NCBI RefSeq assembly: GCF_055900595.2
Contig: NZ_CM148325.1
Direction: 5' to 3' (one strand)
DNA: 64,000 nucleotides
Below, piece after piece: positions 7,979 through 60,029 of the stretch (the stretch's first letter is position 1; the number at the start of each line of letters is the position of its first letter). A program made the position numbers and the translations under genes. The notes beneath the pieces are model-generated. The model was given only the letters and a program-made list of their open reading frames with translations, did no database searches and was not told the origin of the DNA.

Positions 7979-8841
7979 GCTTCGTCAGCCGTTGTCTCCG
8001 GGTGTCGCGTGCGCAGTTGCACGTCATTCTCAGACGAGCCGATGACTGGAAGGACGGCCGCCGCAGCCGTCACACGGATGATACGGATGTGCTTCGCCGT
8101 ATACACCATGTTATCGGAGAGCTACCCACATATGGTTATCGTCGGGTATGGGCGCTGCTTCGCAGACAAACAGAACTTGATGGTATGCCTGCGATCAATG
8201 CCAAACGTGTTTACCGGACCATGCGCCAGAATGCGCTGTTGCTTGAGCGAAAACCCGCTGTACCGCCATCGAAACGGGCACATACCGGCAGAGTGGCTGT
8301 GAAAGAAAGTAATCAGCGATGGTGCTCTGACGGGTTTGAGTTCCGCTGTGATAACGGAGAAAAACTGCGGGTCACGTTCGCGCTGGACTGCTGTGACCGT
8401 GAGGCACTGCACTGGGCGGTCACAACGGGTGGCTTCGACAGTGAAACAGTACAGGACGTCATGCTGGGAGCAGTGGAACGCCGCTTTGGCAGCGAGCTTC
8501 CGGCGTCTCCAGTGGAGTGGCTGACGGATAATGGTTCATGCTACCGGGCGAATGAAACACGTCAGTTCGCCAGGATGTTGGGACTTGAACCGAAGAACAC
8601 GGCAGTGCGGAGTCCGGAGAGTAACGGAATAGCAGAGAGCTTCGTGAAAACGATAAAGCGTGACTACATAAGTATCATGCCCAAACCAGACGGGTTAACG
8701 GCAGCAAAGAACCTTGCAGAGGCGTTCGAGCATTATAACGAATGGCATCCGCATAGTGCGCTGGGTTATCGCTCGCCACGGGAATATCTGCGGCAGTGGG
8801 CCAGTGATGGGTTAAGTGATAACAGGTGTCTGGAAATATAG
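7936..8841 (+). CDS. insD: IS2 transposase OrfB
   Basis: 301 aa, DDE integrase fold; matches IS2 InsD as recalled. Confidence 0.9.
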
Positions 8842-9267
8842 GGGCAAATCCATTGTCAGCACCAACAATGTGGGCTGACATGATAAAGCTGTCTAGGAAA
8901 TCGTTCGCCTCCTCAGCGGACAATCCAAATGGTGATTGTCTCTGTTAAACGTTTATTTTGAAGGTCGACTGAATAAGGTGATGACGCTGTAGAATTTTTC
9001 ACGTGCCACAGAATTTTGAACGCTTTCTCTTACAATATTTCAATGTTTCTATCAGTATTCGCCGGAAGAAGTCATCGACCAAATCATCCCAGTCGTCTCG
9101 CACCACTGACCATTCATGGTTGACATGTGGTGGAAATCCGCTTCTACAGTAACCATTTTTTATTCGCAAAACCGAACACGCCATACGGATAGCTGTTAAC
9201 TGGCATGCCGAGGCAGTCGTTATTTATATTTAGTTTTGTCAATAATCTTTATTTTTTGTAAAAGGCA

Positions 9268-9290
9268 AATATAAATTATTCTCATTATTG
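9268..9290 (+). promoter_or_regulatory. putative Fur box upstream of iha
   Basis: ATAAATTATTCTCATTATTG resembles Fur consensus GATAATGATAATCATTATC, about 60 bp upstream of iha ATG. Confidence 0.45.
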
Positions 9291-9340
9291 TTTGTATTTA
9301 TGTATTGTCTTGCCGGTTAACATGATCGGAGATTAGTAAT

Positions 9341-11431
9341 ATGCGAATAACCACTCTGGCTTCCGTAGTCATTCCCTGTCTCGGATTTTCAGCCAGCAGC
9401 ATAGCTGCTGCAGAGGATGTGATGATTGTCTCTGCATCCGGCTATGAGAAAAAGCTGACTAACGCAGCCGCCAGTGTTTCTGTGATTAGCCAGGAGGAAT
9501 TGCAGTCCAGCCAGTACCACGATCTGGCGGAGGCTCTGAGATCAGTAGAGGGTGTGGATGTTGAAAGTGGTACGGGTAAAACCGGTGGGCTGGAAATCAG
9601 CATCCGAGGAATGCCAGCCAGTTACACGCTGATACTGATTGATGGTGTTCGTCAGGGCGGAAGCAGTGACGTGACTCCCAACGGTTTTTCTGCCATGAAT
9701 ACCGGGTTCATGCCCCCTCTGGCCGCCATTGAGCGTATTGAGGTTATCAGGGGGCCGATGTCCACACTGTATGGCTCTGATGCGATGGGCGGTGTGGTGA
9801 ATATCATTACCAGAAAGAATGCAGACAAATGGCTCTCTTCCGTCAATGCAGGGCTGAATCTGCAGGAAAGCAACAAATGGGGTAACAGCAGCCAGTTTAA
9901 TTTCTGGAGCAGTGGTCCCCTTGTGGATGATTCTGTCAGCCTGCAGGTACGCGGTAGCACACAACAGCGTCAGGGCTCATCGGTCACATCACTGAGCGAT
10001 ACAGCAGCCACGCGTATTCCTTATCCCACGGAGTCACAGAATTATAATCTTGGTGCACGTCTTGACTGGAAGGCGTCGGCGCAGGATGTGCTCTGGTTTG
10101 ATATGGATACCACCCGGCAGCGTTATGATAACCGGGATGGGCAACTGGGGAGTCTGACGGGGGGATATGACCGGACCCTGCGCTATGAGCGAAACAAAAT
10201 TTCAGCTGGCTATGATCATACTTTCACCTTCGGAACATGGAAATCGTATCTGAACTGGAACGAGACAGAAAATAAAGGTCGTGAGCTCGTACGCAGTGTA
10301 CTGAAGCGCGACAAATGGGGGCTTGCCGGTCAGCCGCGGGAGCTTAAGGAATCGAACCTTATCCTGAATTCATTACTGCTTACCCCTCTGGGAGAATCTC
10401 ATCTGGTTACGGTGGGGGGCGAGTTTCAGAGCTCGTCCATGAAAGACGGAGTTGTCCTTGCCAGCACAGGTGAAACTTTCCGGCAGAAAAGCTGGTCGGT
10501 ATTTGCTGAGGATGAGTGGCATCTCACGGATGCACTTGCGCTGACTGTGGGCAGCCGCTATGAACATCATGAGCAATTCGGGGGACACTTCAGTCCGCGT
10601 GCATATCTGGTCTGGGATGTGGCAGATGCCTGGACGCTGAAAGGCGGTGTGACCACGGGATATAAGGCACCCAGAATGGGGCAGCTACATAAAGGGATTA
10701 GTGGTGTATCCGGGCAGGGAAAAACAAATCTACTTGGTAACCCCGACCTGAAGCCGGAAGAGAGCGTCAGTTATGAGGCTGGGGTGTATTACGATAACCC
10801 CGCCGGTCTGAATGCCAATGTCACAGGTTTTATGACTGACTTCTCCAACAAGATTGTCTCTTATTCCATAAATGATAACACCAATAGCTATGTAAACAGC
10901 GGAAAGGCCCGGTTGCATGGTGTGGAATTTGCCGGCACATTGCCGCTGTGGTCAGAGGATGTCACGCTGTCACTGAATTACACCTGGACCCGAAGTGAAC
11001 AACGTGATGGTGATAACAAAGGTGCGCCGCTGAGTTATACCCCTGAACACATGGTGAATGCGAAACTGAACTGGCAGATCACCGAAGAGGTGGCATCATG
11101 GCTGGGTGCCCGTTATCGCGGGAAAACACCACGTTTCACCCAGAATTATTCGTCACTGAGCGCTGTACAGAAGAAAGTGTATGATGAGAAAGGAGAATAC
11201 CTGAAAGCTTGGACGGTGGTGGATGCAGGTCTGTCGTGGAAGATGACGGATGCCCTGACGCTGAATGCTGCGGTGAATAACCTGCTCAACAAGGATTACA
11301 GTGACGTGAGCCTGTACAGTGCCGGTAAGAGTACGCTGTATGCCGGTGATTACTTCCAGACGGGATCATCAACAACAGGATATGTGATACCTGAGCGAAA
11401 TTACTGGATGTCGCTGAACTATCAGTTCTGA
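9341..11431 (+). CDS. iha: IrgA-homologue adhesin / TonB-dependent outer-membrane siderophore receptor Iha
   Basis: 696 aa, signal peptide, plug plus 22-strand barrel, C-terminal ..WMSLNYQF; N-terminus MRITTLASVVIPCLGFSASSIAAAEDVMIV matches Iha as recalled. Confidence 0.9.
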   Translation: MRITTLASVVIPCLGFSASSIAAAEDVMIVSASGYEKKLTNAAASVSVISQEELQSSQYHDLAEALRSVEGVDVESGTGKTGGLEISIRGMPASYTLILIDGVRQGGSSDVTPNGFSAMNTGFMPPLAAIERIEVIRGPMSTLYGSDAMGGVVNIITRKNADKWLSSVNAGLNLQESNKWGNSSQFNFWSSGPLVDDSVSLQVRGSTQQRQGSSVTSLSDTAATRIPYPTESQNYNLGARLDWKASAQDVLWFDMDTTRQRYDNRDGQLGSLTGGYDRTLRYERNKISAGYDHTFTFGTWKSYLNWNETENKGRELVRSVLKRDKWGLAGQPRELKESNLILNSLLLTPLGESHLVTVGGEFQSSSMKDGVVLASTGETFRQKSWSVFAEDEWHLTDALALTVGSRYEHHEQFGGHFSPRAYLVWDVADAWTLKGGVTTGYKAPRMGQLHKGISGVSGQGKTNLLGNPDLKPEESVSYEAGVYYDNPAGLNANVTGFMTDFSNKIVSYSINDNTNSYVNSGKARLHGVEFAGTLPLWSEDVTLSLNYTWTRSEQRDGDNKGAPLSYTPEHMVNAKLNWQITEEVASWLGARYRGKTPRFTQNYSSLSAVQKKVYDEKGEYLKAWTVVDAGLSWKMTDALTLNAAVNNLLNKDYSDVSLYSAGKSTLYAGDYFQTGSSTTGYVIPERNYWMSLNYQF

Positions 11432-11463
11432 TAATAACAAAACGCTATCACTGACGGTAGAAT

Positions 11464-11502
11464 ACGTTGCCACTGTAACTCCTGGCGGAACAGTGGCAAC
11501 GT
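11464..11502 (+). terminator. rho-independent-type hairpin downstream of iha
   Basis: 12-bp perfect stem ACGTTGCCACTG / CAGTGGCAACGT followed by TATT. Confidence 0.5.
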
Positions 11503-12214
11503 ATTAGGTTAAGTGCATTTCCGATCCGCTAATGAGATTTCGTTACCAACAACTAATATCGTCACAGGAAATGCACGGATTATTTTTAACTTATCATTTA
11601 CATACTTGTCCAGAGTGTAAGCGCACCGTGAAGGACGTGGGGTAAAAATTAGTGTACAGAGAGAGTGACGTTCCAGGGCAACAACTCTTTCATGCGGTTG
11701 GCAGGCCAGGTGTTGATTACACTGATCACGTGGCGTAGCCACGTTTCCGGCTCGATTCCGTTAAGTTTTGCAGCTACCGATCAGGCTGTACATCACTGCC
11801 GCACTATCGCTCGTCATCTCAAAGTCCGGTCTCGTCAGCAGGAAGGTATCATTCTCTCCCGCCATTTTTCCGGGGGCCCGGTCAGATAAGTCCCTTTGTC
11901 TATCGCTGACTCCTGGCTCATAACCCGGTTAGCAGAATGCAGGGTCACCACCTCGCCACGACCGAATCCGGATAAGTCAATTGCACCTTCTCAATCGCCA
12001 TTTTGTCACAATTAAGTTTGATAAATCATGTCACCTCTGCACTGAATCTGCTCCAGTGCCTCATTGGTCTCCGTCCACCCCTTTAAACTGCCGGATAAGA
12101 CTGCTGCACAGCGCCTTCCCCGGAATCAAATCACTTTCCCTGTCCGCCACAATCCGCTTCATGCCACCTCGTATTTTGTTTCAGAGACCGGAATCTGCCA
12201 GAAAGTGACTACGC

Positions 12215-37809: not shown

Positions 37810-38132
37810 TTTTTTGCTCGCCCATATTCAACGGCTTCTTTAAGGAGTTCATTTTCCATCGTTTTTTTGCCGAGCAGACGCTGGAGTTCTTTAATCTGCT
37901 TCATGGCGGCAGCAAGTTCAGAGGCAGGAACGACCTGTTCTCCGGCAGCCACAGCAGTAAGACTTCCCTCCTGGTATTGCTTACGCCAGAGAAATAACTG
38001 GCTGGCTGCCACACCATGTTGCCGGGCAACAAGGGAGACCGTCATTCCCGGTTCAAAGCTCTGCTGAACGATAGCGATCTTTTCCTGTGTAGTACGCCGT
38101 CTGCGTTTCTCCGGCCCTAAGACATCAATCAT
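37767..38132 (-). CDS. insC: IS2 transposase OrfA
   Basis: Identical to copy 1 InsC in the track translation. Confidence 0.9.
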
Positions 38133-38840
38133 CTGTTCTCCAATGACTAGTCTAAAAACTAGTATTAAGACTATCACTTATTTAAGTGATATTGGTTGTC
38201 TGGAGATTCAGGGGGCCAGTCTAACGGTTTACGTTACGCCCTTAGCTACCTGGCTAAACAGGATCAGAAAGAACACGGTATTATTCTGATGCGTAGCAGA
38301 CTTCCCGAAAAAAGTAACCGCGGCCGACCACGACACAACTGAATTACAGCTGTATTAGAATTAAGTTTCCGTAAGTTGTTGGGAGGTGCTTGAGTTAATA
38401 GGCAGCAGAGGGGGCGCTGTAATCAGTGTAGGGGACCCGAATTTCTGCTGTGGTGCTTCAGTGGTTCGGATACAGGTAACGAATATGGTTCATAAATCTG
38501 ACAGTGATGAATTAGCAGCACTGAGGGAAGACATCACTTGAAGCTTATGGGATTGAATGGCGACGTAAACCGCAGAGTCCTGTGCAGTGCGTTTCCGTAT
38601 TATCCACGGATGAGAAAGTTGCGTTATTTCGTCGGTTGTTTCGTGGGCGTAGTGATGTATGGGGCCTTCGATGGGAAAGTAAAACTAGCGGAAAATAAAA
38701 GTACTCGCCTGCCTACGGACCTTTTTACTCAGGGTATTTTTGTTTTCCATAACGTTGCGTATTAACATGAAGGAGAACGAGGGGGATTAGGTAATCTCTT
38801 TCCATGAAAATACGCAAACGTTCATCACCGAAGTGAAAAA

Positions 38841-39269
38841 TCAGTTTTTGATATTTAAATAATTTTTCAAATCATATTTCAGCAGGACACTACCAGCACC
38901 TAACAGCAGCACATCTTTGATGACAAAACTGTCAACTTTTCCCAGTTGTGGTAACAGACTTAGTGTGACTAAACCTGTAACAATAACGATAATATCTCCC
39001 AGTATGCCAGCAGCAGGCCTGAAGAAGCCGATACTCAGTGCTAGAAAAGTGATAGTTTCTACTATGCCGAGGAAATAGCTCCCCCCATGAACACCAAACA
39101 TAATGTACAGGATATTCAGCCACGTGGGAGAAATCAGGGGCTTGAGGGCCATCACTTCAAAATCAAACCATTTATAGGTCCCGAAGAGCATAAATATTAT
39201 AATAACAGACAGGCGAAGAATAACTATGTCATAATCTGATTTAATGTAAACATTAATAAATTTTTTCAT
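38841..39269 (-). CDS. small inner-membrane protein, DUF417-like (YkgB/RclC-like)
   Basis: About 142 aa, four predicted TM helices; downstream of TetR gene on same strand. Confidence 0.45.
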   Translation of the reverse strand: MKKFINVYIKSDYDIVILRLSVIIIFMLFGTYKWFDFEVMALKPLISPTWLNILYIMFGVHGGSYFLGIVETITFLALSIGFFRPAAGILGDIIVIVTGLVTLSLLPQLGKVDSFVIKDVLLLGAGSVLLKYDLKNYLNIKN

Positions 39270-39308
39270 TTCATTCTCCGGGTGGAAAATTATATGCACT
39301 AAAAAGGA

Positions 39309-39869
39309 TTAAGTACGGGTATCAAGCATTTTAATTAAAGCGTTAACGGTTCCTGAATAGATATCATGTGGTGGAAGTCGATTTAACATCAGTGCCCCCT
39401 TTAGTGTAGAACAGACTATAACGGCGAGCTCATCCGGAAGAAGAACTGTTTTGAACTCTCCACTATTCTGCCCGGAGGTGATAATATCTTTAATCATCTG
39501 TATCTCCTGATGTGCCAGTTGACTTACAGCCTCCTGTAATTCAGGAGAAAACTGATGGCTGTCGGATAGCATGGCATAAATACCGCACATTTCCCCTCTT
39601 TCAGCACAACCAGCAAATGCATCAAGATATGTCCTGAGACGTTGTACACCTGAAGAAACATTATGGAGAGTTATATTAAGTCTATCAAATACTTCTGTTT
39701 TGTATTGGCAGTAGGCTATACCAAGATCAGTTTTCCTCGGGAAATGGTGATGAATACTGGCTTTTCTGATACCAATTTCTTTTTCCAGATCTGCGTAACT
39801 GAACCCCAAAAATCCGCGTTGCTGGATCAGAGTATCCGTTATGCGAAGTATATTCTCATAAGTAGACAC
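39309..39869 (-). CDS. TetR/AcrR-family transcriptional regulator
   Basis: N-terminal HTH ..GFSYADLEKEIGIRKASIHHHFPRKTDL.. typical of TetR family. Confidence 0.8.
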   Translation of the reverse strand: MSTYENILRITDTLIQQRGFLGFSYADLEKEIGIRKASIHHHFPRKTDLGIAYCQYKTEVFDRLNITLHNVSSGVQRLRTYLDAFAGCAERGEMCGIYAMLSDSHQFSPELQEAVSQLAHQEIQMIKDIITSGQNSGEFKTVLLPDELAVIVCSTLKGALMLNRLPPHDIYSGTVNALIKMLDTRT

Positions 39870-39910
39870 GGCTTTACCTGTTATGTATTAAAGGGACTAT
39901 TATACATATT

Positions 39911-40177
39911 TTAGCGATAGATAATGGCAGTTCCATCAAGTTTATTTTTTCCTCCCAATGAAGTGATTCGGAAATGAGAACCTCCTGCCTGCTCCGCTTT
40001 GTCTTTAAGCGCAGTTGCCACCTCTTCTGGTGTATATAGATTACCAACAGAAATATAGTCTGACGGCATCAAACCAACAACGTCCTGACGATTAATTTCA
40101 TCTGCAGCAGTTGCGTAGCCTGTCAGAATGAGACCAAGGGCGACAATGGTAGTGCAGATAACATAATTCATGAGCAA
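39911..40177 (-). CDS. YhcN/BhsA-like periplasmic stress protein (DUF1471)
   Basis: Signal peptide then DUF1471-like C-terminus ..KAEQAGGSHFRITSLGGKNKLDGTAIIYR. Confidence 0.55.
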   Translation of the reverse strand: MLMNYVICTTIVALGLILTGYATAADEINRQDVVGLMPSDYISVGNLYTPEEVATALKDKAEQAGGSHFRITSLGGKNKLDGTAIIYR

Positions 40178-50254: not shown

Positions 50255-51520
50255 TCACCTTTTCAGTGGATTGTTAACTTTTGCATATTCAAACGGACTG
50301 ATACACTCCTCCCTGTTTGCATCCAGAAAATCTGCCCACCATTGCAGCATAAGCCGACGTTCTTCCAGATGTTCTGCTTTATGAATATACGCGGCACGTA
50401 CTCCGTTGCGCTCCTGATGACTCATCTGACGTTCAACCGCATCTCTTGACCATAAGCCGGATTCAATCAATGCACTGCACGCCATCGCCCGGAATCCATG
50501 GCCACAGACTTCCTTGGTTGTGTCATACCCCATCACTCTGAGGGCCTTATTTACGGTATTTTCACTGATTGGTTTACGTGGGTCGTGTGCTCCCGTAAAG
50601 ATCAGACCATTTTCACCTGCCCATGTCTGAAGTTCTGCCAGTATGGCTACAGCCTGTTGGCTGAGTGGCACAAGATGTGGTGTTCGCATCTTGGAGCCCC
50701 GGTATGAAAATTTTACGCCTGGCAGAGGTTCGCGTTCGGCTGGAATAGTCCACATGGCATTGTCAATATCAATTTCAGACCAGCGGGCATATCTGAGTTC
50801 ACTGGAACGAATAAAAACCAGTAAATTCAGCATAACTGCCAGTCGGGTGACAGGCTGGCCTTTATAACCGTCAATACGCGACAGAAGTTCAGGCAGGCGT
50901 GAAAGATCCAGAGCAGGGCGATGCTGGCGTTTTACCGTGGTCAATGCACCAGCCATATCCAGAGCCGGGTTATATCTGATGATGCCAGACTGTACGGCAT
51001 AACGCATTACAGCAGATATTCTTTGCTGCAGACGACTGGCGATTTCATAAATTTGTTTAACTTCTGCAGCACGAACAGGGATAAGCAGATCCGGGGTACT
51101 GAGTGTTGTGATATCCCGGTTGCCGATAAAGGGGAAAACGTGAGTCTCGAGGCTTTTGAGTACTTTATCGCTGTGTGATTGTGCCCATTGTTTATTACTG
51201 GCATGCCAGCGTCGTGCAATATGTTCAAAAGAGAGCTGTAAATCAGGGACTACTTTTTTAGCTCTTTTCTGTTCGCAAGGGTCAACCCCCTCCGAAATCA
51301 GTTTTCGGGCCTCATCCCGTTTTGTACGAGCTTCGGAGAGAGAAACTTCCGGATACACACCAAGTGCCAGGGTTTTCTCCTTACCCAGAATACGATAACG
51401 GAGACGCCAGTAACGGGAACCATTAGGATGTACCAGCAGGAACATGCCAGCCCCGTCAGTGAGTTTATAAGCCTTGTCAGTGGGCTTTGCAGCCCGGATT
51501 TTTGCGTCAGTCAGTGCCAT
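50255..51520 (-). CDS. P4-type tyrosine integrase
   Basis: 421 aa; N-terminal MALTDAKIRAAKP..YKLTDGAGMFLLVHPNGSRYWRLRYR, C-terminal catalytic region (..HGFRAMA..) typical of P4-family integrases at tRNA loci. Confidence 0.9.
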   Translation of the reverse strand: MALTDAKIRAAKPTDKAYKLTDGAGMFLLVHPNGSRYWRLRYRILGKEKTLALGVYPEVSLSEARTKRDEARKLISEGVDPCEQKRAKKVVPDLQLSFEHIARRWHASNKQWAQSHSDKVLKSLETHVFPFIGNRDITTLSTPDLLIPVRAAEVKQIYEIASRLQQRISAVMRYAVQSGIIRYNPALDMAGALTTVKRQHRPALDLSRLPELLSRIDGYKGQPVTRLAVMLNLLVFIRSSELRYARWSEIDIDNAMWTIPAEREPLPGVKFSYRGSKMRTPHLVPLSQQAVAILAELQTWAGENGLIFTGAHDPRKPISENTVNKALRVMGYDTTKEVCGHGFRAMACSALIESGLWSRDAVERQMSHQERNGVRAAYIHKAEHLEERRLMLQWWADFLDANREECISPFEYAKVNNPLKR

Positions 51521-51717
51521 AGTTCAGCCTTCTGAATGCGTTAAAGAGGGTACAAATTCTGTCGAACTGGGGTATACCCGCAATTATACCCACACAATGG
51601 GGTTGATGTGGGGGGAATCTGGTTGAGTTCGGTAGAATTGATTTGGAGGCAGAACGCTTAAATTGTGGCGTTCTGAAACGAAAAACGGACCTCCGTGGAG
51701 GTCCGTTTATATGAATT

Positions 51718-51736
51718 TGGTGCCCGGACTCGGAAT
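51718..51736 (-). other. 19-bp repeat of tRNA-Phe 3' end (att-type direct repeat), not a complete tRNA
   Basis: TGGTGCCCGGACTCGGAAT is the reverse complement of the tRNA-Phe 3' end; sequence beyond diverges from tRNA; about 200 bp upstream of int. Confidence 0.75.
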
Positions 51737-51983
51737 GAAACTGGTTATATAACCAATTGTTTTGTATCGACTGTTTTGTCTTTGTTCTTTTTGGGGCCAC
51801 CAATGAGGCCCCCATGTGCAATTCGAATTCTTTTGACGCTATAATCCCTCTTTTTTGTGCTTTGTTGTAATCATTTTGTCTGGTTCGATATGCTGAATCG
51901 CGGAATCGAAGTAACAACAAAATACAGAGATTTATAAAATACCTGGCTACCTGTGTTAGGGAGCGTTAACGCACAGATTTTGT

Positions 51984-52310
51984 TTATGGCTGCCAGAAAT
52001 GATCTGATGGTTTGTCGTCTGGCTCTGCAAGTACCCTGTTGATATCCCGGGAACCATGAACGATACGTTCGATACGAACTTCAGTATCCAGTACCCTGAA
52101 CAGCAGAAGGTAACGACCATACGAACAACCTCTGATCCCTGCCCCTAACTCGGGTCTTTCTCTGTAGAGTACTGGCGATTCGGCTATCAACAGACATTGT
52201 TGGTAAAGCTCTTCGGTAAAACTGATTGCACGGACAGGATTATCCTGAGCGATCCAGTCACCTATAGCTTCAAGATCGTGTTCTGCTAATGGTGAAACAG
52301 TCAGTTTCAT
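51984..52310 (-). CDS. type II toxin, ParE/RelE family
   Basis: 108 aa; ..YGRYLLLFRVLDTEVRIERIVHGSRD.. ParE signature; 4-bp overlap with upstream antitoxin gene. Confidence 0.75.
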   Translation of the reverse strand: MKLTVSPLAEHDLEAIGDWIAQDNPVRAISFTEELYQQCLLIAESPVLYRERPELGAGIRGCSYGRYLLLFRVLDTEVRIERIVHGSRDINRVLAEPDDKPSDHFWQP

Positions 52311-52570
52311 ATTGGCTGTTCACCTTCTGCCATCTTTTTGTATTTGTGCGTCAGTCGCCCGAATACCTCTTCAGCACTTTTACTTTCACCGCTGTTGATG
52401 CCTGCGGTAACGGCGCTCTGGAGTGATTCAAGCTTTATCTGCTGTTCCCGTTCTTCCAGAGCACGAAGTCCGGCACGAATGACTTCACTTGTATTGTTAT
52501 ACCGACCACTTTCTATTTGTTCGCGGATAAACGTTTCAAAGTAAGGACTGAGGGATACACTGGTAGGCAT
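52307..52570 (-). CDS. type II antitoxin, ParD-like (RHH)
   Basis: 87 aa; ..YFETFIREQIESGRYNNTSEVIRAGLRALEERE.. typical ParD/RHH antitoxin. Confidence 0.75.
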   Translation of the reverse strand: MPTSVSLSPYFETFIREQIESGRYNNTSEVIRAGLRALEEREQQIKLESLQSAVTAGINSGESKSAEEVFGRLTHKYKKMAEGEQPI

Positions 52571-52641
52571 GGTGATTTTCTCGCCGATTGATTACTATCA
52601 ATTAATAATAGTTAATATTCGCGAATTGTAAAATACCTCTT

Positions 52642-53508
52642 TTATGCCTTGCGGCTTTTGTTCACTGTGCTTGCCAGGGCTTCCGGGTAGTGTCTGACAA
52701 TAATATCATTAAGCCTGTCAACCAGTTCTGGTTTCCTGAACGTGATGTGCGCGGAGCCCTTCTTAAAGTATCTGATGCTGAACATCTCATCTTCATAGTC
52801 CTCTTTACCCTGAACAGACCGGATGTGCTCATTCAGATGAATGGTGATGTTTTCCCGGTTGTCGGGGATCGGTTTGCCGCTGAACAGATACAGCATTCTT
52901 TCCAGGTCGGCAAGTCGATCTGCCTGTTGCCCGGTGATAAGATGAAACCCCCACCGGTCCCACCTCACCAGGTTGTTGACGATAATTTTACTGCCAAATT
53001 TACAGGGTGAATTGTTTTCGTAATTCCAGCTCAGTCCCCTGAAAACATTGATCACCCCACGCTCAAACACTTCATCTTTGTTCTGGTGCAGTTGTTCAAA
53101 TGTGCTCAGAATGTTCGCTTCACTGATTTCCGGAAAATTATCGTATTCCAGTGACCGGTACCATGTATCACGGGCCTGCGCATCCATTAATGACAGCATC
53201 CCGGAACGTTGCATCAGGTCACGCCAGATTTCGCGATCGAGATTGCGGGTGATGGCTTTCATTGCTGTTTCCGGTTTATCCATGAGCCAGCATCCGCAGC
53301 GAAAATCCTGTTTCATCGCCCAGTCCCGTGCGCTTTTACCACCAATGCTTTTTGTCAGTACTGAGATTTCAGTCAGTTGCCGGATAAGCGTTTCGGTTTG
53401 TTGCAGTGCTGCATTCCGTACCGTCACAACGTGTCGGATACTGGTGGAGCAGATAACGTCCGTATTCCCGGTGACCACTTCCGGATGGGAGATTGTGATG
53501 TTTGACAT
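52642..53508 (-). CDS. conserved CP4-type prophage protein (YafZ-like, DUF4942-like)
   Basis: 288 aa; family assignment from recall only. Confidence 0.4.
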   Translation of the reverse strand: MSNITISHPEVVTGNTDVICSTSIRHVVTVRNAALQQTETLIRQLTEISVLTKSIGGKSARDWAMKQDFRCGCWLMDKPETAMKAITRNLDREIWRDLMQRSGMLSLMDAQARDTWYRSLEYDNFPEISEANILSTFEQLHQNKDEVFERGVINVFRGLSWNYENNSPCKFGSKIIVNNLVRWDRWGFHLITGQQADRLADLERMLYLFSGKPIPDNRENITIHLNEHIRSVQGKEDYEDEMFSIRYFKKGSAHITFRKPELVDRLNDIIVRHYPEALASTVNKSRKA

Positions 53509-53592
53509 TATCGGTTTCCCTTTTGGTTTATAAACGAAAACGCCAGCCGTATTCAGGCTGGCGTCAGTGGAATGAAGTCTGGTGAGTAAGGC

Positions 53593-53790
53593 TCACCGGT
53601 TCTGTTGCAGAAGCTGCAGTTGGCGCAGGGTATGGATATCCTCCCTCGCCTGTTCAATGCAGGGCAGCAGTGCTGCCGAATCCGTTTTATCCTCATCGTT
53701 GTCAAAGATAATTCCCGATTCGCAGTCGATATTGTCCTGCAGCCACGCAATCAGAATATCCAGTGCTGTTTCCGTGGTTAATGATTTCAT
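53593..53790 (-). CDS. small hypothetical protein (65 aa)
   Basis: ATG at 53790 preceded by AGGAA; acidic small protein downstream of cbtA-region genes. Confidence 0.35.
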   Translation of the reverse strand: MKSLTTETALDILIAWLQDNIDCESGIIFDNDEDKTDSAALLPCIEQAREDIHTLRQLQLLQQNR

Positions 53791-53801
53791 GTTGTTCCTG
53801 G

Positions 53802-54290
53802 TTACCAGTTGAAAGTGGGTAAACCCGGCAGGCATTCAGCGCTGGCATCCAGATGAATGAGACTGACGCCATAACGTCGGGTAAGTGTGACAACCAGACA
53901 ACGGAACGTTTTTGACAGGCCCAGGCGCTTAAGCCGCAGAACCGGGTATGACCACGCATCGGTACGTAACAGATAGCCGCTACCTGTGAAATGAATCCAT
54001 TCTGATTCACCAACGTCACTGGTCTGATGCGACAGCGAGTACAGCCAGGCGTTATCCTTTTCCGTGATATGTGCGGTACTGCAGCGTATGCCGGCAAGGG
54101 TTGCAAACGGTGGTAGTGTGCAGGTTGACTGTTGGTCGGATTCCTCCACCACGCGGAGTGAATAACCGTTTTCAGCGACCTTGTTAATCAGTTCAGTGAG
54201 ATTAACACCATCGACGTCAACGACAATTTGCCCCATGTTCAGTGCCTGCACATTAATTCTGTCGGCTTCCAGCATCAGGGAAAGTTTCAT
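53802..54290 (-). CDS. hypothetical protein downstream of CbtA-like toxin (YeeW-region)
   Basis: Start overlaps cbtA-like stop (ATGA coupling); no recognised motif. Confidence 0.4.
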
Positions 54291-54661
54291 CGTTTCTCCG
54301 GATGCTTACCCAGGGTAATGTTATTTACCGTTCTGTAATTGTCGCGGGTCATCAGGCCGGTCGCCCGGCGAGCCCGGAGGATATCAATACTGTTTATTAA
54401 CTGAGAGCGGGGACAAGTGCTGAATCCCGGCTGGTCGGTACGCACCAGCGCGTATTTTTCCACGAGAAAATTCACCGCATCACACAGTGAAATGCCAGCT
54501 TCAATATGCTGCTCAATCACACGTTCATCGGCGAACGGTGTGTCATTCAGTGTAAGGCCGTAATGCTGGCCCAGTAGTCGGGAGAGCAGAGTCTGCCAGA
54601 TGGTGACGGGAGACGGGCAGCTCGATGCCTCCCGTACGTGTGTATCGGGTAATGTTTTCAT
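54287..54661 (-). CDS. CbtA/YeeV/YkfI-family toxin (cytoskeleton-binding, type IV TA)
   Basis: 124 aa; ..[55 protein letters not shown].. matches YeeV family as recalled. Confidence 0.85.
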
Positions 54662-54750
54662 ACTGAAGGTTTTCCTGATATGCAGAGATGAAAAATGGAA
54701 AAGTGGCGTGGTGAAAGCACCAGGCCGGAGCAGAAGGTTATTCCGGTGGT

Positions 54751-55119
54751 TTACTTTTTCGTTTCGGGCGTCGGATAAACAGCCAGATAAACGTAACCAC
54801 AGGAGCCGAGGGTGTCGGCTTCGCAGGTCAGCCCTTTCGCATACAGCGTGACGGTATGCTGATGTCGGGGATTCAGTTCACCGCTGGTGAGCATGAGTTC
54901 CAGTTGTTTCATCAGCAGCGGAAAGGCCTGGTCCAGATGGTATGCATCTGCGTCGCTGAAGCGGCCTCTGATACCGGCGCGGTCGGCAAGGTAATGCAGG
55001 CGGTTACCCTCCTGCACCAGACGGGCGCCAAAACAGGGCCTCACTGTGCAGGGAAGCCCCCACCAGGGGCGGTCGTGATTGTCGTCGGGATGAGTTATCC
55101 CGGAGAGTGTGTCTGACAC
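54751..55119 (-). CDS. CbeA/YeeU-family antitoxin
   Basis: 122 aa; [42 protein letters not shown].. matches YeeU family as recalled. Confidence 0.85.
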
Positions 55120-55168
55120 GATAAAATCCTCTCTGAAAAGTGGTTAAGAATGGTTTAACGATGACAGG

Positions 55169-55801
55169 TCAGCCGGTGCGCTGACCGGTTTCGGTGAAGA
55201 TGTATGCATTGATGAGAATGGCCTCATCCACAGCGGCGTCTGAGGTCATCTGGTCGTACTCGTTTTCCAGTTGACGGTACAGCCAGAAGGCCAGGTCGCG
55301 CAGGGCTTCGCTGACAGCGGCTTCCGCATCGGCTGTCATAGCCTGACCAGTCGGACTGTTCCGGGTAACAGTGATAACGGATGGCAGTAACGTCCCCGGT
55401 GGTGGATTTCAGCCTGCAGTTGCCAGAAGTTACGTTTCTGCACCGCCTGCAGGGCATCCGCGATACGATGAAGCTCACGGTTCTGCGGGGCATACTCCCG
55501 GACTCTCCTGGTTGTTGCTGACTGCCAGTGCCAGCGTCCTTCAAAACAGGCTCCGTCCCTGGCTGCAGAATCCGCTGAACCAGATGCACGGCTCTTCCAT
55601 AAACCTGCCGTTGCTGAGACGGATAACACGCTGGCAGAGGTCAATTCCGAAAATGCCACAGACCTCCCTGACGTCCTCATACACGTTTTCATACCAGTTG
55701 CTGTCAGCATGATGCTGACGGTACCCGTCGCGGGCTTTTTCCCGTGCCGGGCAGGAAAGTTCATCCAGCGTATACACTGTGATGGTGATAATTCTGCTCA
55801 T
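55169..55801 (-). pseudogene. disrupted ORF between YeeT-like and CbeA-like genes (three overlapping frame fragments)
   Basis: Natural-looking segments lie in frame A (55541-55801), frame B (55336-55764) and frame A again (about 55169-55339); suggests two compensating frameshifts or overlapping small genes. Confidence 0.3.
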
Positions 55802-55815
55802 CAGAATGCCCTGAC

Positions 55816-56037
55816 TCAGTTCAGGGTGACGCTCATCAGCCGGACATACGGGCCAAAACTGTCCTTACGACGTTCTGCAAACACAGCCAGCACACCGGGA
55901 ATATCCTGCACTTCACGACCGGTATACGTTTCAGTGCTGCCGTGCCAGCGGTATTTGCCGGTACAGAACGGAAAAAGACGGGATGCAGGATGCTGTTGGT
56001 GAATACGCATGGCTTCACCACGGGTGATGATTTTCAT
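55816..56037 (-). CDS. YeeT-like protein (DUF987)
   Basis: 73 aa, MKIITRGEAMRIHQQHP..; conserved position between RadC-like and antitoxin genes. Confidence 0.7.
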   Translation of the reverse strand: MKIITRGEAMRIHQQHPASRLFPFCTGKYRWHGSTETYTGREVQDIPGVLAVFAERRKDSFGPYVRLMSVTLN

Positions 56038-56105
56038 AATGGGATACCTCTGAAGACAGAAGATAAAAGTGAAAACAGGTGTGATGTGGTTGTGACGGTG
56101 ACGGG

Positions 56106-56597
56106 TTAAAGCAGACCGTGTTCGGCAAAGGAGAATACCTGGCTGCCACCGACTATCAGATGGTCCGGCACCCGGATATCCACCAGGGCCAGCGCCTGAA
56201 CCAGACGTTCCGTAATAAGCCGGTCTGCCTTACTGGGAGTGACTTCACCGGACGGGTGGTTGTGTGCCAGTATCACGGCGGCGGCATTGTGGTACAGGGC
56301 GCGTTTAATCACTTCCCGGGGATGGACTTCCGTGCGGTTGATGGTGCCGGTGAAGAGGGTTTCACCGGCAATCAGCTGATTCTGGTTGTTCAGATACAGC
56401 ACCCGGAACTCTTCACGCTCCAGTCCCGCCATGTTCAGAATCAGCCATTCCCGTGCCGCATGCGTGGAGGTGAAGGCCACGCCGGGTTCATGAAGATGAC
56501 GGTCCAGGGTTTTCAGGGCCCGCTGAATGAGGCTGCGCTCACCGGGTGTCATCTCTCCGGGCAGAAAGGAAAGTTGTTGCATTGTGCTTCTCTCCAT
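56106..56597 (-). CDS. RadC-like JAB-domain protein (YeeS/YfjY family)
   Basis: JAMM-like motif ..AAVILAHNHPSGEVTPSKADRLIT.. Confidence 0.85.
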   Translation of the reverse strand: MERSTMQQLSFLPGEMTPGERSLIQRALKTLDRHLHEPGVAFTSTHAAREWLILNMAGLEREEFRVLYLNNQNQLIAGETLFTGTINRTEVHPREVIKRALYHNAAAVILAHNHPSGEVTPSKADRLITERLVQALALVDIRVPDHLIVGGSQVFSFAEHGLL

Positions 56598-57083
56598 TCA
56601 GTCGATGATGCGCATAATGGCGCTGCATTCCGGATGCTGCAGGGCATAATCCCGCAGCCGGTAATAATGGACCGTCATGGCATAACACTCCGTACGACAG
56701 GCATGATGACTGTACGTCATCAGACAGGCAGCAATGCCGGCGGCTTCCGGGCTCATTTCAGCGCGGTTACCGTTCATGGCATTGAACAGTACCCATGTTT
56801 CGTCATCATCGTCATCCGGTTCGGGTGCCATAAATGCCCCGCCGTTGTTCAGGGTGTACAGATTCCAGATACCACCGCAGTAGTCTTCGCACAGACGGTC
56901 CATCCAGCCGAAGACACGGGGCTCCAGGGTCACCCACTGTGGAATGAGGCCAAAGTGCTGCGGCCAGAAGCTGATGCGCTGTTCATCAGGGACTATGGTG
57001 GCAACCAGCTGAGACTGGTTATTCCCTGATGCAGTAGTTACGGAAACAGAAGGTGTGGTGAAATTATGCGAAGAGGTTGTCAT
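56598..57083 (-). CDS. antirestriction protein (YfjX/YafX, ArdB/KlcA-like)
   Basis: ..RISFWPQHFGLIPQWVTLEPRVFGWMDRLCEDYCGGIWNLYTLNNGGAFMAP.. typical antirestriction family. Confidence 0.8.
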   Translation of the reverse strand: MTTSSHNFTTPSVSVTTASGNNQSQLVATIVPDEQRISFWPQHFGLIPQWVTLEPRVFGWMDRLCEDYCGGIWNLYTLNNGGAFMAPEPDDDDDETWVLFNAMNGNRAEMSPEAAGIAACLMTYSHHACRTECYAMTVHYYRLRDYALQHPECSAIMRIID

Positions 57084-57173
57084 GAGATTATTCCTTATAA
57101 AAAGTAAATGAATGGAAGACGTCCCGGGGACAGGGACAGACGTGAGCCGGACTGTACTTTCAGGGAAACGGCA

Positions 57174-57992
57174 TCAGCGCAGGCTCTCCAGCAACGTTTC
57201 CGCCATCACCCATAACGCGCGATTGAGCTTAATGTCGGTGTCAATGCTGTGAATGGCCCGGGTATGGATACGTTTTCCTTTTGCACTGCGACCGGAAATC
57301 CCGCCTTTCAGCATATTCTCCTGGATGGTCTGATAAGCACTCCACAGGTCCTTACCGTAATCCTCCCGGCGTCGTGGCGTCAGAATGTCGGCGGTGGTGA
57401 CGAGGTGATGTTCGTCACCATAACGGTAAGTCAGTGCCGCCTGTGCCAGCGCCTGGCGTGCCGGTGGCGGCAGGACCAGCGACTGCATGGCATCACGCTT
57501 TTCCTCAATCCGGTCAAAAACGCCCACCACTTCGTAAGCCCCTTCAATAACTTTCTCCACCACGTCTCCCCGGTGTGGAACACGCACTTCCCCCAGAGAC
57601 TGACCACAGACGCAGCCGTTCTGGCAGACGAACCTGAAGTAACCCGGCAGCATCTGGTAGCTGGAGGTACCGTCATGGGAGTTCAGCAGGATGATTTCAG
57701 GGACATGTTGTCCGTTTATCTCTCCGTCACGGCGCAGACGCAGCATGTGTTTGGTATACCCCCGGCGGCCCGGGTCACGTACGCGGGTCTGGCAGGCAAA
57801 GAAGGGCTGAAAGCCTTCCCGCTGCAGGCTTTCCAGCACGGTGATGGTGGGGATCCAGGTATAGTTCTCGCTTCTGGATGTGTGCTTATCTTCCCCGAAT
57901 ACGCTGGGGACGACCTGCATCAGTTCTTCGCGAGTTAAGGGGCGGTCACGGCGTATCTGGTTCGCATAACCAAAACGACTGGCTAATCGCAT
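57174..57992 (-). CDS. DUF932-family protein (YfjQ-like)
   Basis: 272 aa; conserved CP4-57 module position. Confidence 0.6.
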   Translation of the reverse strand: MRLASRFGYANQIRRDRPLTREELMQVVPSVFGEDKHTSRSENYTWIPTITVLESLQREGFQPFFACQTRVRDPGRRGYTKHMLRLRRDGEINGQHVPEIILLNSHDGTSSYQMLPGYFRFVCQNGCVCGQSLGEVRVPHRGDVVEKVIEGAYEVVGVFDRIEEKRDAMQSLVLPPPARQALAQAALTYRYGDEHHLVTTADILTPRRREDYGKDLWSAYQTIQENMLKGGISGRSAKGKRIHTRAIHSIDTDIKLNRALWVMAETLLESLR

Positions 57993-58082
57993 GATTTGCT
58001 CCTTATGAATGAGTTAGCGATATAAATGAAAAAGCCGCGCCTCCCGGAGAAGACGCGGCCTGATGGATGAAATGAATGAGGT

Positions 58083-58316
58083 TTATTGTCTGGGAAGCCC
58101 TTCACTGGCGAGCCACGCATTAAGTTGTTTGCCGGCATCGTATTCAAAATTCCAGCACCGCCAGCGCAACTGACCTTCAGCATTGTGGATAACCAGCCGG
58201 AAATGCGTTCCCTGGTCATTTTCGATAAACACATTGCGATAAGCTGTTGTGATGGCAACCGCCTGCTCTCGAGAGAAAGGGCCTTCGGGCAATAAAACAG
58301 GGTGACAGTCCGACAT
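58083..58316 (-). CDS. DUF905-like small protein (YkfF/YpjJ-like)
   Basis: 77 aa, ..[30 protein letters not shown].. Confidence 0.55.
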
Positions 58317-58321
58317 ACCGG

Positions 58322-58999
58322 CTATTTTCCGATAAATTCAACGCTGGCACCGGTGGCATTACCGTCAGCACCAACCGTGACGGTCACTTTGTCGTACGCA
58401 CGGTCTTCAGGATTGAACACTTCAAACTCAACCTTATTGCCTTTTACTTCGTAAGAGCCAAAATCAGCGGTTTCTGTTGTTTCCTCGTCATATTCCCGGG
58501 CGTATGCCTGCCGGGCAGCCTGCAGGACGGAATCTTTATTAATAGTGGTCGTCTGTTTCGGGGAAAAACCGGCAAGTGATGTGACAAATTTCGGACAGAC
58601 CTTCAGCATATCACCGCGGGTGAATTCCATTCGTACACCAAATGCCTGTAAAACGGACACATCACGCTCTGCTATGGAGTGAACGGCTTTTTTGACCATT
58701 TCCGGCGCCTGTCCGATTTCCACCTCAACAGCCCTGAATCCCGTCTGCTGATTACACATTTGTGATGTGGGGATCAGGTTACCGTTAATACTGATACGGC
58801 TGCCCAGGAGCGTCTGTACGCCATTCGGGCATCCCTGCATCAGGCCGGTAATACCAATCGTGCCATTTTTCAGCATTACCAGCGCCTGACCATCTTCCGT
58901 CATGGTCTGACACCAGCCGTTTTTGACAGCCCAGTTGCCGGCGGAGGCGGAGAATGATGCCACAGTGAACAGCAGGGGAAAAAGAGCTCTGGTATTCAT
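58322..58999 (-). CDS. hypothetical secreted protein
   Basis: Signal peptide [20 protein letters not shown] at internal Met (58999); no recognised domain. Confidence 0.5.
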
Positions 59000-59146
59000 G
59001 ACTGACCTCTGAAATGAACGTATGGTGTTATTGATAATGATGGAAGGTATGCAGTGACTGTTCAGGGAATGACGTAGCCGTATATTTAGTTTTCTGTTCA
59101 ACATATTGTCTCCATACCTGTCGGGACGGCTTTGGCAGGCCGGCGA

Positions 59147-59827
59147 TCACAGGTTAAAGGTGTTGATAAGTTTATGGATGAAAGAGAAATGTGGCAGGGC
59201 GGAGATAAAACGCTCTTCAGCGACCAGACTGTGGATGTGGCCTCTCCGTTCAAACCGTTCTGATGTCAGGCTGACTGATTTGATATCTGCCAGAGGAAAG
59301 ACCTGCAGTTTTCCCTTCTGTAACGCGATCAGATACCAGCTACCGCTGTAATAAATGAGCCGGCAGGGCTCCAGTGACGGATACCATCGCTCAGCCATCA
59401 GAGAGATGTGGATACACTGTCTTATTGCCAGGATGAGTTGCGAGAAACACTCGGGGAACGTTGCAGTGATATCCGGCGCCGGTAGCCAGATAAGGCAGGG
59501 AGAGGGCTCCTGGTTGTCGGTAAGACAGGTTATCAGTCGTCCGTTCCGGAGCGGAAGTATCCGTGCGATCCCCGTATTCTGTATAAAAGAAAGCATTTCA
59601 GGGATCGCACCTGGGCTGCTCTGTCGTCTGAGGCTGTACCTGCCATTTCTGTACTCTAAATCCAGGTGAACCAGACGCTGATGAAAATCGCGCTGTAAAG
59701 TACGTTCTGTAACGCCAAATTCATCTGACAGTGTTTTTAGTGACAGAGATTCTCCGGCCATCAGTCGGCTGATAATGAGTGATAAGCGAACCGCCAGGCG
59801 ATCATGCCGGGAACGATTATCAGACAT
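59147..59827 (-). CDS. YfjR-like transcriptional regulator (HTH plus WYL-type domain)
   Basis: N-terminal HTH (..LSLIISRLMAGESLSLKTLSDEFGVTERTLQRDF..), about 226 aa. Confidence 0.7.
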   Translation of the reverse strand: MSDNRSRHDRLAVRLSLIISRLMAGESLSLKTLSDEFGVTERTLQRDFHQRLVHLDLEYRNGRYSLRRQSSPGAIPEMLSFIQNTGIARILPLRNGRLITCLTDNQEPSPCLIWLPAPDITATFPECFSQLILAIRQCIHISLMAERWYPSLEPCRLIYYSGSWYLIALQKGKLQVFPLADIKSVSLTSERFERRGHIHSLVAEERFISALPHFSFIHKLINTFNL

Positions 59828-60029
59828 AGATGTGCACTCCGTAAGAAAACATCTTTTATTTCATAATGTTATTATGCATCATGATGTTGAAAGGATGTGT
59901 CGCATCCGAATAATCAGGAATAAAATGCAGCAGAAAAAATATTCCTTTAATTATCTGATTTTTAAGCAGGGTTTCATAAAAAGAAGAATGCTTGTTAATC
60001 CAGCGACACATCCTGTCGGCGTGAGTGTG

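Follow-up and report, generated by a model that had tools for sequence, protein, structure and literature searches.

Do two toxin-antitoxin (TA) pairs at the tip of a genomic island serve to keep that island in the chromosome? The question is raised by positions 51984 to 55119 of a 64,000-nucleotide stretch of contig NZ_CM148325.1 (NCBI RefSeq assembly GCF_055900595.2), where a ParD/ParE pair and a CbeA/CbtA pair are encoded. The whole of this stretch is referred to here as the window. A first-pass annotation had described both pairs as addiction-type modules at the distal end of a CP4-like element and had suggested that they could contribute to the retention of an entire tandem array. We now conclude that the interval is probably the tRNA-distal end of a genomic island of the P4-integrase (CP4-like) type, the first of a tandem pair at the tRNA-Phe gene (pheV) of Escherichia coli, and that it carries two intact TA operons.

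The Two TA Pairs

The genes of the two pairs were found to be present and intact where the first-pass annotation had placed them.

51984..52310, minus strand: parE, type II toxin of 108 amino acids from the ParE/RelE fold family (PF05016, E 8e-18, profile positions 3-88 of 89)
52307..52570, minus strand: parD, antitoxin of 87 amino acids with an N-terminal ribbon-helix-helix domain (PF03693, E 4e-17)
54287..54661, minus strand: cbtA-family type IV toxin of 124 amino acids (PF06755, E 1e-61, full length)
54751..55119, minus strand: cbeA (yeeU)-family type IV antitoxin of 122 amino acids (PF06154, E 8e-55)

The Pfam scores, which are E 4e-17 or better for both pairs, rule out chance open reading frames (ORFs). 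All of the genes from 51984 to 57083 lie on the minus strand. The gene parD precedes parE, and the proposed 4-bp overlap between them (ATGA) is evident from the sequence itself. ParE occurs in exactly this form on at least 1000 contigs, as does ParD, the exact CbtA and CbeA proteins are each found on about 1000 or more, and all of them have already been named by PGAP.

The Island Boundary at tRNA-Phe

Two features define the left-hand limit of the island that carries these genes.

51718..51736, minus strand: attachment (att) repeat of 19 bp that reproduces the 3' end of tRNA-Phe (pheV) exactly, CCA included, from alignment with pheV of E. coli Nissle 1917
50255..51520, minus strand: P4-type tyrosine integrase with three Pfam integrase domains, belonging to island 2 and not to island 1

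No tRNA gene was found in the window by ARAGORN, and the boundary was therefore defined by comparison with Nissle 1917. Positions 38000-51739 are 100% identical to that genome, and the identity ends inside the tRNA. In Nissle 1917 the counterpart of the integrase at 50255-51520, which is 100% identical to it, adjoins an intact tRNA-Phe gene (pheV) beside yqgA. Only part of pheV is kept in the window, as the att repeat TGGTGCCCGGACTCGGAAT. This repeat marks the junction between the CP4-like island 1, which extends to the right, and island 2, which extends to the left. It is the only match that the window gives when as many as 3 mismatches are allowed, where 0.01 would be expected by chance; with no second copy in the window at this threshold, the far end of island 2 must lie outside the window or be degenerate.

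The same junction is found in E. coli JNEC-KY173, which is 99.9% identical to the window over 38000-52000, a segment that spans the junction. The order in this relative is yqgA, pheV, integrase 1, an island of about 40 kb, parDE, the repeat, integrase 2, and island 2. Its island 1 contains afa/dra, Ag43, a CP4 module, CbeA/CbtA, DUF4942, and ParDE, and its internal cargo differs from that of island 1 in the window. Island 1 runs off the end of the window; in JNEC-KY173 its integrase adjoins pheV. Among the 5426 complete E. coli genomes that made up our survey set, the junction of integrase 2, repeat, and parE was seen in 213. One genome with only a single island is similar to the window from about 51710 onwards, and its parDE abuts the chromosomal gene yghD. 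The distal position and the tandem context proposed in the first-pass annotation are thus borne out by the att repeat and by the identical junction of JNEC-KY173.

A comparable arrangement has been published for ST38 E. coli, in which a 110-kb tRNA-Phe region holds two islands with two integrases, a parDE module between them, and yeeV/yeeU in the first island (PMC12632120, BMC Genomics 2025). Its adjacent islands at tRNA-Phe each have their own tyrosine integrase, with parDE between, and JNEC-KY173 shows this layout too. As far as it was consulted, that report gives the layout only, with neither experiments nor the exchange for an AbiE cassette that is described below.

The two pairs had been placed within 3 kb of the boundary. 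The stop codon of parE is 247 bp from the att repeat and cbtA lies less than 2.9 kb from it, in agreement with this figure, but cbeA reaches up to 3.4 kb. The RadC-like and antirestriction genes that had been listed alongside the pairs are present, but they fall outside of 51984-55119, at 4.4-5.3 kb from the repeat.

Two further segments adjoin the repeat. Immediately beside it lies an imperfect palindrome of 20 bp, AACTGGTTATATAACCAATT (51739-51758), which may be a site for a recombinase or an accessory factor; its symmetry is weaker in the terminus of AbiE-type islands. Between integrase 2 and the repeat lie 114 bp (51604-51717) that include a strong terminator hairpin (51708-51683). This segment matches, at 97% identity, the sequence beside tRNA-Phe in island-free K-12-type genomes and does not adjoin the repeat in the single-island pheV genome. 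It may be a pheU-type flank, and it has no bearing on the boundary of island 1. A possible second CP4-like end at 11-18 kb was rejected, since this region holds only fragments of insertion sequences (IS). None of the seven proteins searched for with tblastn has a further copy, and Rfam gave no match between 50 and 60 kb in the window.

An Exchangeable Slot at the Island Tip

The genes next to the att repeat are held in a cassette that can be delimited on both sides.

51737..51909, no strand assigned: conserved noncoding terminus of island 1, about 172 bp, common to ParDE-type and AbiE-type islands (genome search and Nissle alignment)
51910..52670, minus strand: exchangeable ParDE cassette of about 750 bp, with a putative promoter, parD, and parE; similarity to the AbiE-type island of Nissle 1917 and CFT073 is lost between these positions and resumes on both sides
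52642..53508, minus strand: gene for a DUF4942 protein of 288 amino acids, the last gene of the core (PF13708, E 2e-66)

The left breakpoint of the cassette lies at about 51909 and the right one among the final codons of DUF4942. A search with 51737-52641 recovered the whole ParDE segment in 471 of the 5426 genomes. About 646 further genomes, which are without parDE, match only the first 172 bp (the terminus) at 91.9% identity, and a direct search located the AbiE-type end in 652 genomes. In Nissle 1917 the order from the terminus inwards is AbiEii, a DUF6088 (AbiEi-like) gene, and the DUF4942 gene; in the sister island of CFT073, AbiEi/AbiEii likewise fill the space from the 172-bp terminus to DUF4942. 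The AbiE proteins (DUF6088 and a nucleotidyltransferase) occupy the same slot as ParDE but are unrelated to it, and they are not in the window. No third type of cargo was detected among the terminus-bearing ends with a query from which the cassette had been deleted, a search that cargo of more than about 1.6 kb would escape. At serX the slot is empty, as copies of the core module there stop some 150 bp past DUF4942, and a copy beside setC, presumably at the selC site, has a remnant of rhuM in the corresponding place.

The core itself is nearly universal in E. coli, in the order DUF932, antirestriction, RadC, DUF987, CbeA, CbtA, DUF5983, DUF957, and DUF4942. At least 80% of the part from CbtA to DUF4942 is present in 3262 of the 5426 genomes, at a median of 3 places in each. 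The distal order GTPase, DUF932, antirestriction, RadC, DUF987, CbeA, CbtA is present in the window and is the same in CP4-44 of K-12, which has no parDE, and in many other genomes. The survey of the core module and the comparison of the slot together establish that CbeA/CbtA, RadC, and the antirestriction gene belong to the conserved core and that ParDE lies outside of it, as an accessory allele in the last slot. The locus had been called the typical end of a CP4-57-type element; this description suits the core and does not extend to ParDE. That ParDE and AbiE replace each other at a defined slot adds a little to what is known, and no description of this exchange was found in a limited literature search.

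The alternation of the two cassettes raises the possibility that the last slot carries defence cargo, that the neighbourhood of att is a permissive site for such cargo, and that ParDE, like AbiEi/AbiEii, acts mainly in abortive infection or against plasmids. AbiE is an established abortive-infection system of the type IV TA class. It shares its slot and both flanks with ParDE, and the antirestriction genes nearby indicate that the region deals with conflict between mobile elements. Set against this, neither ParD nor ParE has a match among the PADLOC models, and the serX copies of the island end do without any cargo in the slot. We know of no phage defence by the ParDE family, a statement for which no literature search was made. 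On balance we regard a mainly defensive role as rather improbable. A related and equally improbable proposal is that tRNA-Phe islands reserve the last position before att as a guard slot with exchangeable contents. In it, ParDE and AbiEi/AbiEii would be functional alternates, swapped by recombination between the 3' end of the DUF4942 gene and the 172-bp terminus, and ParDE would act in abortive infection or against mobile elements instead of, or besides, addiction.

The ParD/ParE Pair

ParD scores 96.9 bits against the NCBIfam model TIGR02606 (cut-off 46.2) and matches the solved structures 7b22 (V. cholerae ParD2) and 3kxe (Caulobacter ParD1) with E of about 1e-10. For ParE the best match among solved structures is 6x0a (E 3e-13), and 3kxe and 5ceg were also matched. 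The gene arrangement is that of parDE from RK2/RP4, ParDE1 from Caulobacter (3kxe), and ParDE2 from V. cholerae (7b22/7r5a), in which a ribbon-helix-helix ParD is encoded upstream of an overlapping ParE. The resemblance to these classical systems, with the above E values at best, is one of family only, and the poisoning of gyrase is predicted from homology.

A conjugative Salmonella IncF plasmid and Pantoea megaplasmids carry homologues of parDE, whose proteins are 79-84% and 70-81% identical to those of the window. In comparisons with these homologues, the ratio of nonsynonymous to synonymous substitution rates (dN/dS) of parD is 0.05-0.08, and parD is under purifying selection. For parE the same comparisons gave dN values of 0.15-0.21 with dS saturated. 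A recent plasmid origin of the ParDE cassette was considered and rejected, as the best plasmid match has only 72-77% DNA identity.

The plasmid homologues also bear on an anti-addiction role, in which the chromosomal ParD would neutralize the ParE of incoming plasmids and allow the host to lose these plasmids unharmed. The occurrence of homologous parDE on the Salmonella and Pantoea plasmids is in favour of such a role. The homologues are diverged, however, and none with more than 80% DNA identity was found among 72,556 plasmids; this explanation is very unlikely.

The region upstream of parD contains the following candidate regulatory elements.

52632-52605, minus strand: putative parDE promoter, TTTACA-16 nt-TATTAT (promoter scan, 10/12 matches)
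52587-52602, minus strand: candidate ParD operator, ATTGAT-N4-ATCAAT (inverted-repeat search)
52612-52631, minus strand: candidate ParD operator, an imperfect palindrome (inverted-repeat search)

The two palindromes lie beside or over the promoter-like site; they are short, and such repeats are commonplace in AT-rich DNA.

The CbeA/CbtA Operon

The gene cbeA precedes the adjacent cbtA with a spacer of 89 bp, and three further features follow cbtA on the same strand.

53802..54290, minus strand: DUF5983 (YeeW-like) gene, full length, 162 amino acids (PF25638, E 2e-28; PF19419, E 7e-21)
53593..53790, minus strand: DUF957-type gene of 65 amino acids, 11 bp past the DUF5983 stop (ORF and annotation at the matching position in relatives)
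53539..53565, minus strand: terminator-like hairpin of 10 pairs with a T-rich tail (terminator scan)

The start of the DUF5983 gene overlaps the stop of cbtA by 4 bp. This overlap, the 11-bp gap, and the terminator-like hairpin suggest that the TA pair is part of a longer transcription unit, and cbeA-cbtA-DUF5983-DUF957 looks like a four-gene operon closed by the hairpin. An 80-residue version of the DUF957-type ORF gave no Pfam match at E <= 0.01.

CbeA and CbtA are 92% and 88% identical, respectively, to the proteins of K-12 CP4-44, and CbeA matches the solved YeeU structures 2h28 and 2inw with E of about 1e-77. The pairs CbtA/CbeA of CP4-44 and YpjF/YfjZ of CP4-57 share with the window the Pfam families, the gene order, and the 89-bp spacer. 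The upstream RadC and DUF987 genes of these two K-12 elements and their position near the attachment site are also as in the window. CP4-44 differs in that its CbtA has R15, its DUF5983 gene (yeeW) is truncated to 195 nt and 64 amino acids, and it is without DUF4942 and parDE.

Residue F65 of CbtA, which is involved in the contact with FtsZ (PMC5624674), is kept. Position 15 is Cys rather than the MreB-contact residue R15, as it is in YpjF and YkfI. The substitution R15C abolishes the binding of MreB by CbtA, yet YpjF and YkfI naturally have C15 and are dual inhibitors, and the reverse change had no effect (PMC5624674). On these grounds Cys15 was rejected as evidence that MreB targeting is lost, and it does not speak against membership of the family.

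In E. coli M24FEP-TDT (8583-11810 of its segment), cbtA of the corresponding island end is broken by ISEcp1-blaCTX-M-55 and parDE is intact; the interruption amounts to a natural knock-out of the toxin beside an intact cbeA. In a screen of the type IV secretion system of the F plasmid, CbeA, YfjZ, YagB, and the CP4-57 antirestriction protein YfjX were reported to pass into recipients (PMC11288057). Such a transfer of proteins would link the island end to the biology of conjugation.

Addiction and Retention of the Islands

By homology, ParD would repress the parDE operon and sequester ParE. After excision and loss of the island, ParE would outlast the labile ParD and poison DNA gyrase, and post-segregational killing would remove the island-free cells. 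CbtA would block both FtsZ and MreB, and CbeA would counteract it at these targets and not by acting on the toxin. We infer the toxicity of ParE, the lability of ParD, the binding of ParD to its operator, and any effect on retention from what is known of the two families, and on this analysis an addiction role of ParDE is plausible. A ParE-family toxin on a CP4-type element is also known from Shewanella oneidensis, where, according to the abstract of PMC8706911, the CP4So prophage depends on ParESO/CopASO for its maintenance after excision. In that system the antitoxin is of the CopA type and not ParD, and the host and the element are different.

The excision of either island 1 or the whole array removes both TA pairs. 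Since island 2 has its own integrase (50255-51520), it could leave alone, and in doing so it would lose neither pair. An effect on retention would therefore cover island 1, or the array when it is lost as a whole, and not island 2 when it excises by itself. The suggestion that the entire array might be retained is accordingly limited to those excisions that remove island 1.

Several points weigh against addiction as the function of this locus. For CbeA/CbtA such a role is doubtful, because the paralogous antitoxins cross-neutralize (CbeA, YafW, and YfjZ neutralize each other's toxins; PMC5371832) and because E. coli genomes have the module in a median of 3-4 copies, most of them in more than one. 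The loss of one cbeA-cbtA copy therefore need not kill the cell, and the description of this type IV pair as an addiction-type module in the first-pass annotation is not upheld. The integrase and the excision functions of island 1 lie outside of the window, and an addiction role would be moot if the island cannot excise. The palindromes upstream of parD are statistically undistinctive as putative operators. The alternation with AbiE fits a role in defence at least as well. The cited papers that deal with TA genes of E. coli islands go no further than to suggest a role in retention (yeeUV, PMC4927057; PMC12632120), and our search found no experiment on this ParDE or this CbtA/CbeA.

In a rival explanation the two pairs are passengers, selfish or neutral, and do not measurably affect retention. 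They would persist because they are hard to delete and would spread by recombination, and the islands would stay through lost mobility or through selection on their cargo. The mosaic nature of island 1 (52000-60000) fits a spread by homologous recombination: the closest single genome is 94.8% identical over 10 kb of island 1, with none higher among complete E. coli genomes, versus 99-100% for sub-segments in different genomes. The ParDE cassette, for example, is 100% identical in strain VTB97379v, and 60000-64000 is 99.2% identical in other strains. The cross-neutralizing CbeA paralogues also agree with a passenger status, as do the local signs of decay, which include the pseudogene at 55169-55801 described below, a pseudogenized WYL regulator and GTPase gene in relatives, and the cbtA interrupted by ISEcp1. 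In opposition to this, the purifying selection on parD and the exact conservation of the four proteins on about 1000 or more contigs argue that activity has been retained, although retained activity alone does not prove a stabilizing effect. We consider it unlikely that both pairs are mere passengers, and we continue to favour a tRNA-distal island end with two intact TA operons, in which ParDE is a plausible addiction module.

Other Genes of the Core and of Island 2

The remaining genes of the core, upstream of cbeA, are as follows.

55169..55801, minus strand: pseudogene of a conserved hypothetical protein of about 214 amino acids, between DUF987 and cbeA (alignment with three intact relatives)
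55816..56037, minus strand: DUF987 gene (PF06174, E 4e-39)
56106..56597, minus strand: RadC-like JAB protein gene (PF04002, E 2e-45)
56598..57083, minus strand: ArdB/KlcA-type antirestriction protein gene (PF03230, E 2e-37)

The pseudogene is broken by deletions of 2 bp and 10 bp, and its intact form matches phrog_5162; PGAP sometimes names this gene "antitoxin of toxin-antitoxin stability system". The match of the DUF4942 protein to a 548-residue PHROG annotated as a DNA methyltransferase (E 2e-16) covers positions 82-290 of the latter. No solved relative of the DUF4942 protein was found by sequence search. A promoter-like site for its gene lies at 53534-53507 (promoter scan). None of the proteins encoded in 51984-57992, including ParD and ParE, matched a PADLOC defence model, and to the right of 57992 only WYL and weak GTPase matches were obtained. 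Further into island 1, the GC content of 61000-64000 is low (0.36-0.39). The ORFs at 61028-61987 (plus strand) and 62044-62847 (minus strand) gave no match to Pfam, NCBIfam, or PADLOC, and they may be uncharacterized cargo.

Island 2 contains, besides its integrase, a TPR protein, IS1, papX, pap remnants, iucABCD-iutA, a Sat-like autotransporter, which is a serine protease of 1299 amino acids, and an Iha-like receptor. A sialic-acid-type cluster with a NanM-like epimerase, a KdgM-family porin, esterases, and a GntR regulator is also found in island 2 (1-50000), and many IS copies are present in the same region.

Significance

The two TA families and the conserved island end were already known, and so, from the published ST38 layout, was the tandem arrangement. 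Both families are well characterized, and the finding matters little beyond annotation. It does provide a clean map of the junction, with the att repeat, the limits of the cassette, and the structure of the operon, which eases the design of an experiment on island stability. The existence of two alleles of the last slot, ParDE or AbiE, suggests that there is selection for some toxin-antidote module at the island tip. This slot is relevant to how lineages of extraintestinal pathogenic E. coli keep virulence islands that carry aerobactin, Sat, Iha, and Afa/Dr.

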